Below are positions 37,993-44,166 of a stretch of 64,000 bases of DNA, piece after piece; position 1 is the stretch's first letter; each line of letters opens with the position of its first letter. The notes under the pieces are model-generated. The model was given only the letters and a program-made list of their open reading frames with translations, was not told the origin of the DNA and made no database searches. This stretch comes from Thermodesulfobacteriota bacterium (GTDB lineage: Bacteria; Desulfobacterota; UBA8473): the NCBI GenBank assembly GCA_040757775.1, contig JBFLWQ010000007.1:1728-65727 (forward strand), written 5' to 3'. The translations under genes were made by a program, and so were the position numbers.

Positions 37993-38119
37993 AGGGGAAG
38001 ATTAAAATCCTCGACGACTTCAAAAAAAAACAGCTACCGATTTTTTCTGTTAACCATTGATACCATAACTATTTCGAGATACATATTTATTATAATGCCA
38101 TAGGAGGAGGGTGGTGTAT

Positions 38120-38269
38120 ATGCCTTTAAGCTTAAGAATACCACCGAAAAAAGAAGAGATGATTACAAAAGCTGCCATAAAAGCGGGTAAGACAAAATCG
38201 GCATATATCCTAGATGCAGTGGATGAAAAACCCCACACTATTCTTATCATTACAAAAAAAGGGGGCTAA
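38120..38269 (+). CDS. Ribbon-helix-helix (CopG/DUF6290-like) antitoxin, probably C-terminally altered
   Basis: Strong RBS TAGGAGGAGGGTG. MPLSLRIPPKKEEMITKAAIKAGKTKSAYILDAV resembles RHH antitoxins. Not in the ORF track (<60 aa). Confidence 0.5.
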   Translation: MPLSLRIPPKKEEMITKAAIKAGKTKSAYILDAVDEKPHTILIITKKGG

Positions 38270-38387
38270 AATACCGATCAATGATGTATGGATTGCGGCA
38301 TCCTGCATGGAAGTAGGGGGAACGCTCCTTACAAGAGACAGACATTTCGAGGTTGTAGAACAAATAGCGACGGTTATCCTGGGATAG
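38223..38387 (+). pseudogene. Remnant of a PIN-domain VapC toxin gene (only the C-terminal ~38 residues remain)
   Basis: Frame encodes ...IPINDVWIAASCMEVGGTLLTRDRHFEVVEQIATVILG*, a typical VapC C-terminus with the last acidic residue. No upstream PIN core. Confidence 0.5.
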
Positions 38388-38496: not shown

Positions 38497-38694
38497 ATGA
38501 TCAGACTCCTGACGGAAGAAATAATTCTAAATCTGATAGAAGATGTTTATGCTTCATCAGAATCGGAGGAAATGAAGCAGGCTCAACTGGCAGTTTTGCA
38601 TCATTGTTTAGATTGCCTCGAAAAAGGAGAGATGTTAACCATTGATTCCGAAGAGAGAATAAAACTTCATGAAACAGGGCTGAGACTCCATTGA
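38497..38694 (+). CDS. Hypothetical small acidic protein
   Basis: 65-aa ORF whose stop abuts the TTG start candidate of the HNH gene. Confidence 0.3.
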   Translation: MIRLLTEEIILNLIEDVYASSESEEMKQAQLAVLHHCLDCLEKGEMLTIDSEERIKLHETGLRLH

Positions 38695-39495
38695 TTGCAT
38701 CCAAGGAATTTTGGGACAGTGACATGGATTCTCAGAAATAAAGATTATACTGTTATAGGATATTGTATGACAAGCAAAAGGAATAAGGATCAAGATAGGG
38801 AAGAGACCCAGAAGTTAATCCTTAATCCAAACCGTTCTGAATACTCTGGAGGTTCGAACTGGCTTGGGCATGGAAAAAACGATGGTGAATGCGCTGTTAT
38901 TGATTATAGGTTGTTAGATGGTGCCACTATGAATGAATTGAAAAATCTACGTGGTGCAATATATGAGCATTTGTCCCATTTGAAAAGAGAACACGGATTG
39001 CCATATGAAAAAGTTGTTGATAAGTACCGATTCAAACGAGATATTCTAATAGGGCCGCAGGATGCTCTTACTGATCTGGAAGAACACAAATCAGAGTATG
39101 AGAATGCCACAGAAAAAGAAGCAATAATACAGGCAAGGATAGGACAGGGCAAGTTCAGGGAAAATCTACTAAAGCGGTGGCAGTCCTGTTCAGTCACAGG
39201 CTGCCAAGAAGTTAAGGTGCTTCGAGCATCGCATATTAAACCTTGGCGCGACTGCACCAATGAGGAAAGGTTAGATATAGATAACGGGCTTCTACTAGCA
39301 CCCAATATAGACGCGCTTTTTGATGTTGGATTGATCAGCTTTGACGATAAAGGTTCTATTTTGTTTTCCCCGAGATTAACTGCCGAGGACAAGAAACGTC
39401 TCTCTGTTAACCATGGCTTGCGACTCAAGAAGGTATATCCTGGCAGTATCAAGTATCTGGCAGAGCATAGGAAACTGCATCAATATCCCCCTTAA
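38695..39495 (+). CDS. HNH endonuclease (HNH_2-type) with unknown N-terminal domain
   Basis: C-terminal ...RIGQGKFRENLLKRWQSCSVTGCQEVKVLRASHIKPWRDCTNEERLDIDNGLLLAPNIDALFDVGLISFDD is the HNH_2 motif. Alternative in-frame ATG at 38767. Confidence 0.7.
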   Translation: MHPRNFGTVTWILRNKDYTVIGYCMTSKRNKDQDREETQKLILNPNRSEYSGGSNWLGHGKNDGECAVIDYRLLDGATMNELKNLRGAIYEHLSHLKREHGLPYEKVVDKYRFKRDILIGPQDALTDLEEHKSEYENATEKEAIIQARIGQGKFRENLLKRWQSCSVTGCQEVKVLRASHIKPWRDCTNEERLDIDNGLLLAPNIDALFDVGLISFDDKGSILFSPRLTAEDKKRLSVNHGLRLKKVYPGSIKYLAEHRKLHQYPP

Positions 39496-39657
39496 GCCTC
39501 TTGAACTAGAAGGTTTGCAGCCTTCAGCCATTGGTAAGAGCCTACATTATGGAATTCGGGAAGTATAAAAGATCAATCGAGAAGAGAATCATTCGCAAAG
39601 AATCTCCCTATCTGGTGCAGACATAATGAGGGATGAAAATAATGAGGATGAAAAAAG

Positions 39658-41499
39658 ATGAATGAGAGCAGAAGGAATGCAGCACCCCCTTGGCCGACCG
39701 ATAATAACTGGGAGAGTATCGTTAAAAATCATAACAAAGTGGTAGATGCCAGCGTATACTCCACCAATGCCGAGACTCGGAATGGGTCAGAGAGCATTAC
39801 TTTGGTTATGGTCTGTGCAGTGGCTGGGATGCCCATCCCTATCAATTACCGACTGGACACCGAGAGAGCCAAAAAGGTAGCTGATCACCCAAACTGGGTT
39901 AAAAAGCGCTTGGCAGCATATCGCACGGGAGTTGACAGCAAGGTAGTAAGAGCCATTAAAGACTTTGCGGATATATTAAATGTAGATTTCCAAACCGTCA
40001 TTGACGGCTTGGACAAAGCATTGGAGTTAGGAAGAGTTGCAGGTAATATTGATAAACCTACTGAAGAAACTCGAAAAATAAACAACTTTTCAAATAAATA
40101 CATCCCAAATTTTAACGATTTTAAATTAGCATATAGAACTATTGCAAAACTTGGTCAAGAAGTTTCCCTTGATGCTGTTCTGGATCAAATCGAAATCAGC
40201 ATCAAAGAAACTACTCACATTTTAAAAGAAAATTGGCGTATTATCACGGAAGAAAATATAAAAAAAATATGGTCTGCAGAATCGAGGAGTGAAAAAAAAA
40301 TGACAGATATGCAAGTGGATTGGGCAAAACGAACCGTGAAAATGTGGGGTAGCATGGAAAATCTTTATGACTATTACGAAGCCCAAGGCTATTTCTTCTC
40401 CAGGGAAATACTAACCCGCTACTTTCTTTCTCTGAAAATCAAACCCTTTGTCATCCTTACTGGCATTTCCGGAACAGGGAAGACGAAGATCGCCCAGATT
40501 TTTGCGGAATACCTGTGCCAGGACGAGACGCCGGAGGAACGAGAAAAGCGTATCGCTTTTGTTCCAGTACGACCCGATTGGATGGATAACAAAGGGCTGC
40601 TTGGCTATTACAATCTCCTGGCTGAAGAATACCACGACACACCGGTCCTGCGCCTTCTACTCGAGGCGAAAGAGCATCCTGACAAACCTTATTTTATCAT
40701 CCTCGATGAGATGAACCTGGCAAAGGTGGAACAGTATTTTTCCGATTTTCTAAGTATCATGGAGAGCCGCACTTCCGATAAACCTCAGGGGGAGGCGATT
40801 CATCTTCATTCCATAAAGGAGGCTAAGACGCAAGATGGATATCCAATTCCATCGAAGTTTCATATCCCACCTAATGTTTATTTTACGGGAACCGTCAATG
40901 TCGATGAATCCACCTATATGTTCAGCCCGAAGGTCCTGGACCGGGCGAATGTGATTGAATTCAACGAAGTTGATCTGGAAAATTATGAAAAAGGAATCAT
41001 TGCATCGGACCGGTTTGCACTGAAGGAACAAGATGTACGGCAAAGGCTGCTTCCTGTTGCAAGCGAAACGCCATTCTGTTCCAAGACCGATTACATGGGC
41101 ATCCTGAAAACGGCGCCCGAGACCAAAGATCATCTTTTGAAAATATCGGGTATTCTCCATCCCGACAACCTCCATTTCGGTTACCGTGTCGTCAACGAGA
41201 TCAGCCGCTATATCCGTACTGCCTCTGAAATGGTGCAGGATTTCAATCTTGAAGAAGCCTTGGATATCCAGATCCTCCAGAAGATCCTTCCAAAATTCCA
41301 CGGCACCCAGGCAAAGCTGGAAGAGCCGCTATGGAAGTTCCTTGCCATTTGCCAGGGCAAGGGGAGCGTACCCGATGAATTCTATCTGGAGAAAGCGGCA
41401 GCGTATGATGAAGGTGCATCTTTTCCCCGATCTGCCAAAAAACTGGCGCGAATGATTCAGAATCTGAAAGTCCAGGGTTACACAAGCTTTATTGAGTGA
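39658..41499 (+). CDS. mcrB: McrB-family AAA+ GTPase with non-canonical ~250-aa N-terminal domain
   Basis: VILTGISGTGKTKIAQIFAEYL and FIILDEMNLAKVEQYFSDFLSIME are McrB GTPase motifs. The AT-rich 5' third differs from the GC-rich remainder. Overlaps mcrC by 8 nt. Confidence 0.8.
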   Translation: MNESRRNAAPPWPTDNNWESIVKNHNKVVDASVYSTNAETRNGSESITLVMVCAVAGMPIPINYRLDTERAKKVADHPNWVKKRLAAYRTGVDSKVVRAIKDFADILNVDFQTVIDGLDKALELGRVAGNIDKPTEETRKINNFSNKYIPNFNDFKLAYRTIAKLGQEVSLDAVLDQIEISIKETTHILKENWRIITEENIKKIWSAESRSEKKMTDMQVDWAKRTVKMWGSMENLYDYYEAQGYFFSREILTRYFLSLKIKPFVILTGISGTGKTKIAQIFAEYLCQDETPEEREKRIAFVPVRPDWMDNKGLLGYYNLLAEEYHDTPVLRLLLEAKEHPDKPYFIILDEMNLAKVEQYFSDFLSIMESRTSDKPQGEAIHLHSIKEAKTQDGYPIPSKFHIPPNVYFTGTVNVDESTYMFSPKVLDRANVIEFNEVDLENYEKGIIASDRFALKEQDVRQRLLPVASETPFCSKTDYMGILKTAPETKDHLLKISGILHPDNLHFGYRVVNEISRYIRTASEMVQDFNLEEALDIQILQKILPKFHGTQAKLEEPLWKFLAICQGKGSVPDEFYLEKAAAYDEGASFPRSAKKLARMIQNLKVQGYTSFIE

Positions 41500-43168
41500 T
41501 ATGACTGTTCTTCACTATTCACCCAAAATCCTTATGGCTATTGCCGATGCTCTCGAGTTCCCGTCGTCGGAAGAGGAAGCCTCATCTTTTATCTGTGACG
41601 AGGCTGCACCCCTGACACTTGAGGAATGGAAGACCTATTTTGTTAAGTTTTATGGAGAGCAAGTCCCTGACTTTTTCCCACAATCCGGCGTCTATACCCA
41701 GCGGCCATTTCCCGGGCATCTCTTCGAGATCAATTTTCGCGATTGCGTCGGCCTGACACGCATCGGACCTGTTCCTGTCCGCGTGGAAAGCAGAAAAATC
41801 AGCGAAACAGCTTATGAGGCAATGTTAGACTATATCGCTGAAAAATACGCCAACCTTGTCTTCAGTTTTGCCACACCTCTCGGGCAAAGTTACCGGAAAG
41901 ATAAAGCAGGGCACGATATAGCCTATGTGGAATATCTGTTTCTCAAGAAATATCTGCTGGACGGCTCTCCAAATCTGGATGCCATTGCCGCATTGATCCT
42001 GTCAAATCCCCATCACAGACTTTACAGGGAATTCCGGAATAATTCCATAGACGCAGTTACCCATTTCGATCCTGCAATGCTGGTAAATATGTTCTCTTCC
42101 CCCGAAAGATTCGCCATCCTGAAACATGGGCATCCCCTTCTTGCTACAAGTTGCGGTCGCACCATATTCCACAGGACAGGTCAACGGTTATACCCTACTG
42201 AAGCAATTGAGGAACGAAAACATCACACAGTGGACACCAACGAAAACCGATTCGTAAAGTATTTTCTGGGGTCGGTTCAACATAGACTGGTTAGCTTAAA
42301 AAAGGCAATGAAGGGGACAACAGGCGGTTATCTCAATCCTGATATAGAGGATCATTTAGAACAGATGGAAAGGAAGACCGGTCATTTCCTGGCTGACCCC
42401 ATGTGGCATGATGTGGGCACAATGCATCTCATCCCGGCAAATTCCCAGGTGTTGCAGCGCCGGGAAGGTTATCGTCAGTTGTTTCGTCTGTATTCTCTAA
42501 TGCAGCTTGTCTCTCGTTGTGATTTTGATACTCACGACTTCAGAAATCTTTTAGAAACAAAGGACACGCCAACCCTGTTTGAGTACTGGTCTTTCTTTAT
42601 CGTCAAAGACATCCTCGACAACACAAGAAAACCCCTATCCTGCAAAACGGTGGTATCGGATGCACCTCTGGAACAACGGGTCAATCCGGGAATTTGCATC
42701 CAGTATGAAGGCGGCGTCTCATTATGGTTTAACAGGACCTGTGCCGGGTCTGCCGGTATGCAGCCAAGTGAGAAACTGGATAGACATTATTTTGCCCATG
42801 AGAGTTATTCCCATACATTCCGGCCGGACATTATCGTCTCCAAGGAGGATAGTATCCTCATTCTCGACGCAAAGTATAAAGGCGAGCGGGGCGGATTCTA
42901 CGGCGAAGCCAGTGACGGAACTATTCAATCATGGAAGGATGAGGACATCGACAAGATGCATACCTACAGGGAAGCAATCCAGAATGTCATAGGCGCTTAT
43001 ATTCTCTATCCAGGAGAAAAAGCGATTGTTTACCCAACTCACGATGCGGTAGAAACATATGAAGGTGTCGGGGCTTTGCCATTAAAGCCTGAAGCAGGAG
43101 CACGCCCTGTTGAAAGACATTTAGAGTATATTAAGCGGGTAATTCACGATTTTATAAAAGAAACTTAA
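41492..43168 (+). CDS. mcrC: McrC-like PD-(D/E)xK nuclease subunit (DUF2357-type)
   Basis: ...RPDIIVSKEDSILILDAKYK is a PD-(D/E)xK motif; translationally coupled to the McrB-like gene. Confidence 0.7.
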   Translation: MSDMTVLHYSPKILMAIADALEFPSSEEEASSFICDEAAPLTLEEWKTYFVKFYGEQVPDFFPQSGVYTQRPFPGHLFEINFRDCVGLTRIGPVPVRVESRKISETAYEAMLDYIAEKYANLVFSFATPLGQSYRKDKAGHDIAYVEYLFLKKYLLDGSPNLDAIAALILSNPHHRLYREFRNNSIDAVTHFDPAMLVNMFSSPERFAILKHGHPLLATSCGRTIFHRTGQRLYPTEAIEERKHHTVDTNENRFVKYFLGSVQHRLVSLKKAMKGTTGGYLNPDIEDHLEQMERKTGHFLADPMWHDVGTMHLIPANSQVLQRREGYRQLFRLYSLMQLVSRCDFDTHDFRNLLETKDTPTLFEYWSFFIVKDILDNTRKPLSCKTVVSDAPLEQRVNPGICIQYEGGVSLWFNRTCAGSAGMQPSEKLDRHYFAHESYSHTFRPDIIVSKEDSILILDAKYKGERGGFYGEASDGTIQSWKDEDIDKMHTYREAIQNVIGAYILYPGEKAIVYPTHDAVETYEGVGALPLKPEAGARPVERHLEYIKRVIHDFIKET

Positions 43169-43230: not shown

Positions 43231-43326
43231 ATGGCAATAGTTGAGGTAAGCATTGTCCCCATTGCTGTCTCTAATACCAGCCTTGGTGAATATGTGGCAA
43301 ATGCCTTAAAGGATTTTAGGAAATGA
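43231..43326 (+). pseudogene. Duplicated 5' fragment (31 codons) of the MTH1187/YkoF-family gene
   Basis: MAIVEVSIVPIAVSNTSLGEYVANALK..; ~85% nucleotide identity to the start of 43867..44166. Strong RBS GAAGGAGG. Confidence 0.6.
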
Positions 43327-43841
43327 CCAAAGCAATTAAGAAAGAACCCTATTCAACCCTCATCACCGACCTCGCCTCTCTTATTGAGCAGGGGCGCAAG
43401 GTTGCGGTACAGTACGTAAATACCGCTCTGGTTAGTACTTATTGGCTAATGGGCAGAAGGATTGTAGAGTATGAACAGAAGGGGAAAGAACGAGCGGAAT
43501 ATGGTGAGGCTCTCCTAAAGAAATTGTCTATTGATTTGACTCATCGGTTCGGTAAGGGTTGGGGATTAACTAATTTGAAAACCTTCCGCCAGTTTTACCT
43601 TACCTATTCGGGTGTTATTCAAAAAAGTCATACAGTGTGTGACCAATCGATTTCTGCATTAACCGATGAAAAAAGCCACACAGTGTGTGGCGAATTGCAG
43701 CCAGTTCCCCAGACAGGACATGAAATTTCCGAGACACTGGTTCGGGAATTACCTCTATCTTGGTCTAACTACCGTTTGCTTATTCGTCTTGATGAACCAT
43801 TCAAACGAGAATTCTATGAGGCGGAGTGCATAAGAATTTAG
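43323..43841 (+). pseudogene. N-terminal fragment of a YhcG/DUF1016-family PD-(D/E)xK nuclease gene (nuclease domain missing)
   Basis: MTKAIKKEPYSTLITDLASLIEQGRKVAVQYVNTALVSTYWLMGRRIVEYEQKGKERAEYGEALLKKLSIDLTHRFGKGW...FYEAECIRI matches the DUF1016 N-domain and stops where the nuclease domain should begin. Internal 46-bp tandem duplication around the 15-bp palindrome CCACACAGTGTGTGG. Confidence 0.5.
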
Positions 43842-43866: not shown

Positions 43867-44166
43867 ATGGCAATAGTTGAGGTAAGTATAGTGCCTATTG
43901 GTGTACCGAATACCAGCCTTAGTGAATATGTGGCAAATGCCCTAAAGGTACTTAAAAATTCTGGACTTAAATACGATTTGACCTCCATGGGCACCATCAT
44001 CGAAGGAGAGCTTGAGAGGATTCTCAGCATAATCAGAGAGATGCACGAAACCCCTTTTAAAAAGGGCGTTATGCGTGTGGTTACAACAGTAAAAATCGAC
44101 GACAGAAGGGATAAACCCGCTACCTCCGAAACAAAGGTGGAATCTGTAGTTAAGAAGATGGGATGA
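43867..44166 (+). CDS. MTH1187/YkoF-family (DUF77) protein
   Basis: 99 aa: MAIVEVSIVPIG...GTIIEGELERILSIIREMHE...RVVTTVKIDDRRDK is typical of the family. Confidence 0.8.
   Translation: MAIVEVSIVPIGVPNTSLSEYVANALKVLKNSGLKYDLTSMGTIIEGELERILSIIREMHETPFKKGVMRVVTTVKIDDRRDKPATSETKVESVVKKMG

Follow-up and report, generated by a model that had tools for sequence, protein, structure and literature searches.

McrBC is commonly presented as a machine of two proteins, its specificity being built into McrB. Where would target recognition reside in a McrBC-type system whose motor possesses no reader domain of its own? The question is raised by a locus of a Thermodesulfobacteriota bacterium, located in a stretch of 64,000 nucleotides (GenBank assembly GCA_040757775.1, contig JBFLWQ010000007.1, positions 1,728 to 65,727 of the forward strand) that is called the window below. 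The region consists of four open reading frames (ORFs) on the + strand: a 65-residue ORF, an HNH_2 endonuclease gene, a 613-residue McrB-like ORF and a McrC-like ORF (Table 1). A preliminary description took the last three for a single module, in which McrB would carry a native chimeric N-terminal domain. The three ORFs and their strand are real and the recognition of a McrBC-type restriction module stands, but the parsing does not: the N-terminal domain of the McrB-like ORF is a separate gene in the relatives.

Judged from sequence comparisons, the locus is probably a McrBC-type restriction system belonging to a clade of NxD motors reduced to a core of ~400 amino acids and served by separate, often multiple, reader subunits. 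The gene anatomy, the dependence of the fusion on one base, the linkage of the adaptor genes to mcrB, the sharing of domains and the intact catalytic motifs on which this reading draws are held with high confidence. The presumed specificity part at the N-terminus is fused to McrB in the window through one base of a run of nine adenines (A9); in 28 of the 36 clade loci, as in all five close homologues, a gene of its own encodes it.

The motor core and its nuclease partner

The C-terminal part of the 613-residue product is a McrB-like AAA+ motor. It matches Pfam AAA_5 (25.9 bits, cut-off 22), the NCBIfam McrB model (E 2.6e-9, far below the equivalog cut-off) and the E. coli McrB structures 6hz4 and 6ut6 (E ~1e-8; 7.4e-9 for 6hz4), the alignment with 6hz4 running through Walker A, Walker B and the N-loop. 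The NCBIfam model and the structures cover residues 252-440, and the match to Pfam McrBC (PF10117) remains below threshold. Across 14 homologues (alignment A1), residues G269-T276, D350/E351 and N414/D416/E417 do not vary. The NVDE motif at residues 414-417, invariant in the clade, fits by signature the large McrB branch that Bell et al. 2024 (eLife, PMC11090510) defined by NxD followed by E, and of which, by their account, no motor had been characterised. In this branch the shortened NxD signature usually has E or D after it.

A search of the 613-residue product against 5.8 billion proteins returned thousands of relatives. The best of these (60-83% identity, an identical record aside) cover only its C-terminal 62-68%, and more than 100 homologues in this range of identity are ~400 amino acids long and start at the equivalent of window residue M215. 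This length and start characterise the close McrB relatives over a range of 55-83% identity.

The McrC-like subunit combines DUF2357 (Pfam E 4.6e-50, 170.6 bits) with a PDDEXK_7 nuclease (E 2.1e-14, 54.4 bits). Its D446...D459-A-K461 motif (nt 42827-42874) and its first residue from the conserved ATG, M4, are invariant in five homologues. This ATG is located 1 nt past the mcrB stop, which bears out the proposed coupling of the two genes; an overlap, of 8 nt, arises only with the mechanically called TTG start.

A presumed two-domain adaptor upstream of the motor

With window residues 1-215 alone as query, five close homologues were found, all of them free-standing proteins of 179-223 amino acids. 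A profile of the six homologues, run against 1.84 billion cluster representatives, gave 217 hits: ~16 of them align over residues 1-140 (the N-module), whereas in ~200 the similarity is limited to residues ~146-212 (the C-module). The consensus of the C-module reads YLPTKEDFESAYR..G..ISxDxVLDQIE....K.G..LK.NWR.ITE.NIEIWSKK. Of 143 proteins, 142 carry it at most 17 amino acids away from their C-terminal end, the sole exception being the window fusion. The window is thus the only case among them in which sequence follows the module, and the idea of a native chimeric domain has to be abandoned.

AlphaFold 2 modelling with an 81-sequence alignment predicts two confident helical domains separated by a disordered linker (mean predicted local distance difference test score, pLDDT, 88.7). 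The score exceeds 90 over most of residues 11-125 of the N-module (means of 10-residue blocks 82-97) and in the C-module. An earlier model made from six sequences was poor (pLDDT 68), and a PDB search with it came back empty. Neither Pfam (E up to 10) nor NCBIfam nor PADLOC provides a match for residues 1-215, for six other adaptors or for the N-terminal domain of the HNH_2 protein described below. The adaptor profile, compared with PDB sequences, gives one weak match only, to a chain named THR5 (8ga7, E 5.7e-5, three short stretches), discounted as presumably composition-driven. The preliminary description was therefore right that this N-terminal part is unrelated to known McrB readers. The possibility that the PADLOC PDC-M26A alignment, which reaches back to residue 166, reveals natural fusions of the C-module with McrB was considered and rejected: residues 1-214 alone match nothing, and a core-only McrB (L012) aligns to the same region of the profile.

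The base composition had been a further cue, the first ~250 codons having been described as AT-rich. This does not hold for codons 1-140 (GC content 0.455, against 0.469 for the mcrB core, 0.466 for mcrC and 0.417 for the whole window). The AT-rich stretch corresponds to the C-module, codons 141-214 (0.293), and extends slightly into the motor. In 32 of 33 loci the GC content of the adaptor is lower than that of mcrB, so the AT-rich cue is a family trait. Together with the shuffling of the variable domains, presented below, it clearly marks the specificity part as a swappable cassette.

C-module genes are linked to one branch of mcrBC

Two censuses, starting from either partner, define the linkage. 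In the first, 80 genome loci were fetched via the motor core and annotated with home-made hidden Markov models (HMMs). Where McrB is at least 55% identical to that of the window, 28 of 36 non-redundant loci possess one to four tandem, same-strand C-module genes directly upstream, the last of which terminates 1-40 nt before mcrB; several of the remaining loci have another domain fused to McrB or begin at a contig end. Where McrB is less than 50% identical, none of 31 loci has a C-module gene, and these McrBs bear long fused N-termini (median 731 amino acids). In the reverse census, 23 metagenome loci were seeded on the C-module using a 9-sequence alignment; mcrB-mcrC comes directly next in 12 of the 13 loci having enough downstream DNA. 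A plasmid collection contained only distant McrB relatives (at most 43% identity) and no adaptor homologue.

The gene order varies around this common theme. In L001-L004 it is PIN, RHH, a 227-residue protein, a 210-residue protein, McrB (399 residues) and McrC (554 residues); in L005-L007 it is PIN, RHH, HNH_2, a 179-residue protein, further small genes and mcrB. The largest array, in L097 (5512-7845), comprises four tandem C-module genes (226, 167, 173 and 197 amino acids) before mcrB.

Variable domains are shared between different chassis

Three sets of sequences were clustered together: the variable parts of the C-module proteins, the extensions that McrB homologues carry at their N-terminus and the N-terminal parts of HNH_2 homologues. 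One domain family, which includes the N-terminal domain of the window HNH protein, is found in 23 adaptors, 10 HNH_2 proteins and one McrB fusion; a second is found in 23 adaptors and four McrB fusions; the DUF4268 family occurs in adaptors and in McrB fusions. The N-module itself recurs in P0252, fused to a canonical NxxD McrB (42% identity, E 7e-26), and in P0250, fused to an HNH nuclease (47% identity, E 2e-39); a second HNH fusion, P0258, carries it as well. To note, in the AAA+ domain of P0252 (556 amino acids, NTAD) a large insertion seems to separate Walker A from Walker B.

The same domains thus take, by turns, the place of the reader in McrB, that of the sensor in HNH enzymes and that of the variable part in a C-module protein, and for this reason they are most simply understood as target-recognition modules. 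The C-module is the constant part and would therefore be the one that contacts the constant partner, McrB; it is a putative device for docking the reader onto the McrB hexamer.

Weighing the adaptor reading

Several observations weigh against this reading. None of the variable domains matched EVE, SRA, YTH or DUF3578, and Pfam recognised only DUF4268, in 6 of 149. Foldseek found no match with E<0.4 for the N-module or the C-module in the PDB or in BFVD (viral models). Seven other clade loci have no detectable adaptor, and some of these (L023, L033) have no fused domain either. One C-module gene (L111, 11-1005) is not followed by mcrB, which makes it a genuine exception unless the locus has been rearranged. 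Sub-threshold C-module-like tails exist upstream of some more distant mcrB genes, and the adaptor architecture probably extends beyond detection by the HMM. Finally, the source record is a metagenome-assembled genome (MAG), and the fusion in the window may be a homopolymer sequencing error.

Two side observations concern these loci. The gene next to the C-module gene of L111 encodes a 257-residue protein that, by eye, starts with a hydrophobic stretch and is charged, possibly coiled-coil, in the rest of its length. The top sub-threshold C-module scores among 7,436 ORFs belong to L040 1-774, L036 9364-9966 and L043 9583-10020, which have C-module-like tails by eye and directly precede mcrB genes at 47-52% identity.

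The junction between adaptor and motor in the window deserves a closer description. It reads AGGAG-T-G-A9-TG, the ninth A being the A of the mcrB ATG, so that an internal Shine-Dalgarno sequence (SD) and start codon are spaced as AGGAG-N10-ATG. With A8 the upstream frame would run AGT GAA AAA AAA TGA, its stop overlapping the mcrB ATG as ATGA; a single A in the A9 run thus keeps the frame of the 613-residue ORF open, with a linker of 9 amino acids in the fusion. In L001 and L007 a TGA stop is located 4 nt 5' of the mcrB ATG, and no homopolymer is present. Since the core SD and ATG are retained, a free McrB core could still be translated.

The one-base fusion may be a true mutation, a MAG sequencing error or a slippage-prone site. 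That an extra A was called, and that the true layout is a 213-residue adaptor overlapping, as ATGA, with a 399-residue McrB, is a serious possibility, if not the one that is favoured, and it would leave the adaptor model unaffected. Removing one base restores the exact canonical stop/start overlap; the relatives are all split; and the exact 613-residue product was recorded once and is in no assembly of the contig index. Against this, the given sequence does read A9, 9-mers are rarely miscalled in short-read assemblies, and covalent reader-McrB fusions are common in the family (P0008, P0014, P0024, P0088, P0101), which makes a fused form plausible and probably functional.

The C-module proteins could also be regulators or inhibitors of McrBC, either transcription factors or antitoxin-like silencers acting until a phage cue arrives. 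Several traits would suit such a role: they are small and helical; their best fold matches, none of them significant, include winged-helix and helix-turn-helix (HTH) proteins (Cdc6/ORC, DtxR-like, CENP-B, InsJ HTH); toxin-antitoxin genes are found nearby; and no known reader domain was detected in them. It is nevertheless an unlikely explanation. A regulator would not be expected to occur in one to four tandem copies whose N-domains are hypervariable while their C-terminus stays constant, and the same variable domains take the place of the DNA-binding domain at the N-terminus of McrB and occupy the reader position on HNH nucleases. Moreover, the window fusion, with its short linker, puts the module at the usual position of a McrB reader.

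It is very improbable that the locus is a decaying remnant, no longer under selection, in which the fusion represents an early inactivating lesion. The neighbouring vapBC and yhcG pseudogenes would fit such a history, as would the fragmented McrBC loci met elsewhere: in L043 (10214-12496) a McrBC relative is broken into many short ORFs and is a pseudogenised copy. In the window, however, the three long ORFs are intact, the invariant Walker A/B, NxD, PD-DxK and HNH residues are kept, and both reading frames are preserved by the fusion.

The HNH_2 nuclease

The HNH_2 assignment is well supported (PF13391, 46.7 bits, cut-off 21). The gene starts at the ATG used in the NCBI annotation, giving 242 amino acids, as opposed to the mechanically called TTG at 38695; it therefore does not abut the 65-residue ORF, to which it had been thought possibly coupled. 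The catalytic residues H156, N173, D182 and D186 are invariant across 120 homologues. The closest solved structure to the catalytic domain is the nuclease domain of VcaM4I (6yex, E 1.7e-23), an EVE-HNH modification-dependent enzyme. A search of residues 1-162 of the ORF against Pfam (E up to 10) gave no match, and thus none to a known modification-sensor domain (EVE/PUA, SRA, DUF3427, SBD); the NCBIfam matches to phosphorothioated DNA (PT-DNA) restriction and MAG4270 models are confined to the HNH part and far below cut-off. The N-terminal domain does resemble the C-module adaptor directly 5' of mcrB in L030 (40% identity over 88 amino acids, E 2e-14).

Its architecture, with an N-terminal sensor and a C-terminal HNH domain, is that of the EVE-HNH enzymes VcaM4I and TspA15I and of other sensor-plus-HNH fusions (Lutz et al. 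2019). It differs from the VcaM4I/TspA15I type in that its N-terminal domain is not EVE, PUA or SRA but an uncatalogued domain of ~105 amino acids common to McrB adaptors.

The HNH protein is best read as an independent, accessory single-chain nuclease whose reader domain comes from a shared, shuffled pool, and not as a McrBC subunit. This view follows from four points: it possesses no C-module, and conversely an HNH_2 domain is present in none of the 143 C-module proteins; a gap of 162 nt separates it from the following gene; of the 36 non-redundant clade loci, only that of the window has an HNH_2 gene within 6 kb of mcrB, to which the L005-L007 lineage is to be added, where the gene likewise precedes adaptor and mcrB; and homologues with the same N-terminal domain occur elsewhere, one (L009, 41% identity) adjoining a different, canonical McrBC and another (L011, 39% identity) in a housekeeping-gene context. 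A cooperative module of HNH_2 nuclease, McrB with native chimeric reader and McrC, for which the shared strand, the close proximity, the L005-L007 and L009 loci and the membership of the HNH N-terminal domain in the adaptor pool might be invoked, is the least credible explanation of all, being largely refuted by the census and by the separate gene that encodes the 'N-terminal domain' in all relatives found. Of the two outcomes that the preliminary description had named as contrary to it, an HNH gene without co-occurrence was found; a known reader as the N-terminal domain of McrB was not.

Comparison with known systems

The window shares with canonical McrBC (E. coli K-12, T. gammatolerans) an AAA+ motor with Walker A/B and an Nx(x)D loop, a McrC with a DUF2357 finger and a PD-(D/E)xK nuclease encoded directly downstream, and an operon devoid of a methyltransferase. 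It differs by its signature, NVDE ('NxD') instead of NTAD, and by the native motor of its clade, which lacks an N-terminal reader: here each reader would be a polypeptide of its own that ends in a dedicated module, and a locus often encodes several of them. In E. coli, mcrB yields two products, McrB-L and McrB-S; the internal SD and ATG retained in the window would parallel this situation if the fusion is real.

The functional precedent for the adaptor model is provided by LlaI and BsuMI, three-gene McrBC systems made of a DNA-binding R1, a motor R2 and a nuclease R3, in which binding of R1 to R2, both as monomer and as hexamer, is reported (bioRxiv 10.64898/2026.08.31.748284). A separate DNA-binding gene 5' of the motor is likewise present in the relatives of the window, its equivalent being fused in the window. 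Two differences should be stressed. LlaI and BsuMI have cognate methyltransferases and target unmodified specific sites, whereas the window operon has no methyltransferase. They also possess a single R1 of 329 amino acids with an ERCC4-like domain, whereas one to four tandem proteins of 150-310 amino acids sharing only a small helical C-module are found here; in size and in their predicted all-helical fold, the adaptors depart from what has been published on R1.

Reader genes that stand apart from mcrB and have a C-terminal module in common are not described by Bell et al. 2024 (PMC11090510), who make no mention of HNH either. CoCoNuT systems combine a long coiled-coil, fused to the McrB homologue, with tandem or alternative nucleases such as HEPN, and the nuclease of their McrC is often inactivated or missing. 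Membership in them was considered and rejected: there is no long coiled-coil, the adaptor being made of two small globular helical domains; the McrC nuclease motif is intact; and HEPN, CnuH or TerY-P partners are absent. Among catalogued candidates, the McrB core matches component A of PADLOC PDC-M26 (E 7.8e-61), as does the 400-residue McrB of L012. However, the PDC-M26A profile spans 724 positions, of which the N-terminal ~300 are unrelated, and no PADLOC model is matched by McrC or by the adaptors.

Proposed mechanism

In the favoured scheme, the small upstream proteins, one to four per locus, would supply target recognition in trans to McrB. A reader would bind foreign DNA at its target; under stimulation by McrC, the McrB ring would then hydrolyse nucleotide and translocate; and the PD-(D/E)xK nuclease of McrC would cut the DNA. 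In the window, the single adaptor would be tethered in frame to mcrB by A9 instead of A8, and it is expected to be functional in this state, like the covalently fused readers of some relatives. The HNH_2 enzyme would act in parallel to McrBC.

No DNA methyltransferase is found among the window ORFs at 34.5-47.4 kb, nor beside the operon in L115 and in the P0064 locus. Its absence from the clade favours a modification-dependent or other non-self cue, and the system is predicted to be probably modification-dependent (Type IV). The putative designation of the adaptors as readers of modified DNA draws on this absence and on the logic of the architecture.

A more far-reaching version, advanced tentatively and with a little less than even confidence, is that an exchangeable array of reader cassettes, each ending in a universal docking module of ~65 amino acids, programs NxD-type McrBC; the readers would be traded with HNH enzymes, and the A9 run could toggle between tethered and free reader by mutation or transcriptional slippage. 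Conceptually, such cassettes would be akin to the HsdS subunits of Type I systems and to the adaptor proteins of AAA+ proteases.

Coordinates and flanking genes

Table 1. Features of the McrBC-type locus and its surroundings (window positions).
Feature	Position	Strand	Details
vapBC-like toxin-antitoxin remnant, decayed	38111..38387	+	TacA-like antitoxin fragment 38111-38269, PIN fragment 38214-38387
65-residue ORF	38497..38694	+	conserved upstream of related adaptor/McrB loci
Single-chain HNH_2 endonuclease (predicted), 242 residues	38767..39495	+	N-terminal domain residues 1-105 (nt 38767-39081), catalytic domain residues ~113-217 (nt 39103-39417)
Full McrB-like ORF, 613 residues	39658-41499	+	stop TGA 41497-41499
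N-module, variable all-helical domain, presumed target reader	39658..40077	+	residues 1-140 of the 613-residue ORF
C-module, conserved, ~65 residues, presumed McrB docking module	40093..40293	+	residues 146-212
Fusion junction	40285..40302	+	Shine-Dalgarno AGGAG 40285-40289, A9 homopolymer 40292-40300, core ATG (M215) 40300-40302
McrB-like AAA+ motor core, 399 residues	40300..41499	+	Walker A GISGTGKT 40462-40485, Walker B D350-E351 40705-40710, N414-V-D416-E417 40897-40908
McrC-like subunit, 555 residues from the conserved ATG	41501..43168	+	DUF2357 and PD-(D/E)xK nuclease; mechanical TTG start 41492
Truncated YhcG-like gene (DUF1016_N / PDC-S02)	43323..43841	+	Pfam DUF1016_N E 3.5e-31, N-terminal domain only
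MTH1187/thiamine-binding family gene, full length	43867-44166		Pfam profile positions 1-91 of 92

Decayed vapBC and yhcG/MTH1187 scars had been described on either side of the operon. The vapBC remnants and the truncated YhcG-like gene are confirmed; the MTH1187-family gene is intact. The antitoxin fragment matches positions 2-41 of the 80 of Pfam TacA1 (E 1.4e-5), and the PIN fragment positions 88-117 of the 120 of Pfam PIN (E 1e-4). Intact PIN and RHH (FitA-like) genes, with 46-48% identity to the window PIN fragment, occupy the equivalent upstream spot in L001 (916-1586) and L005 (326-996); the toxin-antitoxin pair thus seems to travel with the McrBC island and to have decayed in the window. 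The best PADLOC PDC-S02 matches of the YhcG-like gene span the first ~130-137 positions of profiles of 234 to 351 positions.

The 65-residue ORF is possibly a small regulator; its sole library match is a weak one to a PADLOC winged-helix model (E 0.0027). Homologues detected by tblastn in L031 (528-722, 83% identity) and L008 (1-162, 79% identity) are both upstream of an adaptor or mcrB. In L008 the adaptor directly follows the ORF homologue, with no intervening HNH gene, suggesting that the HNH gene was inserted in the window lineage or lost from that of L008.

A promoter and terminator scan found nothing between the genes that exceeds shuffled controls. The top sigma-70-like match of the region (TTGTCA-18-TATAAT, 11/12) is on the minus strand at 38773-38744; it spans the HNH start codon (ATG 38767-38769) and is oriented toward the 65-residue ORF.

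In a Deltaproteobacteria MAG lineage (L115, 3394-18961), a three-adaptor McrBC is embedded in a dense defence island. Its neighbours are an AAA_15/AAA_21 ATPase, AbiEi/AbiEii and a NERD-UvrD helicase, and a 1125-residue RNase_H_2/AAA_30/AAA_12 helicase-like protein directly follows mcrC.

Significance

To our knowledge, LlaI and BsuMI, both linked to methyltransferases, are the only systems in which the DNA-binding subunit is known to be split off. For annotation, the 613-residue 'AAA family ATPase' of the window corresponds to two genes in every relative, and the small ORFs upstream of such motors should be counted as parts of the system. The compact, core-only NxD motor could be used to probe nucleotide specificity and DNA engagement in the absence of an N-terminal linker. 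The dozens of putative reader-domain families that the libraries do not recognise would be candidates for new sensors of modified or otherwise foreign DNA, a kind of protein that has given useful epigenetic tools. More generally, an uncatalogued, conserved docking module seems to let several unrelated reader domains serve one motor-nuclease, and, if the readers do form an exchangeable array of cassettes, a single motor-nuclease could have up to four target specificities.

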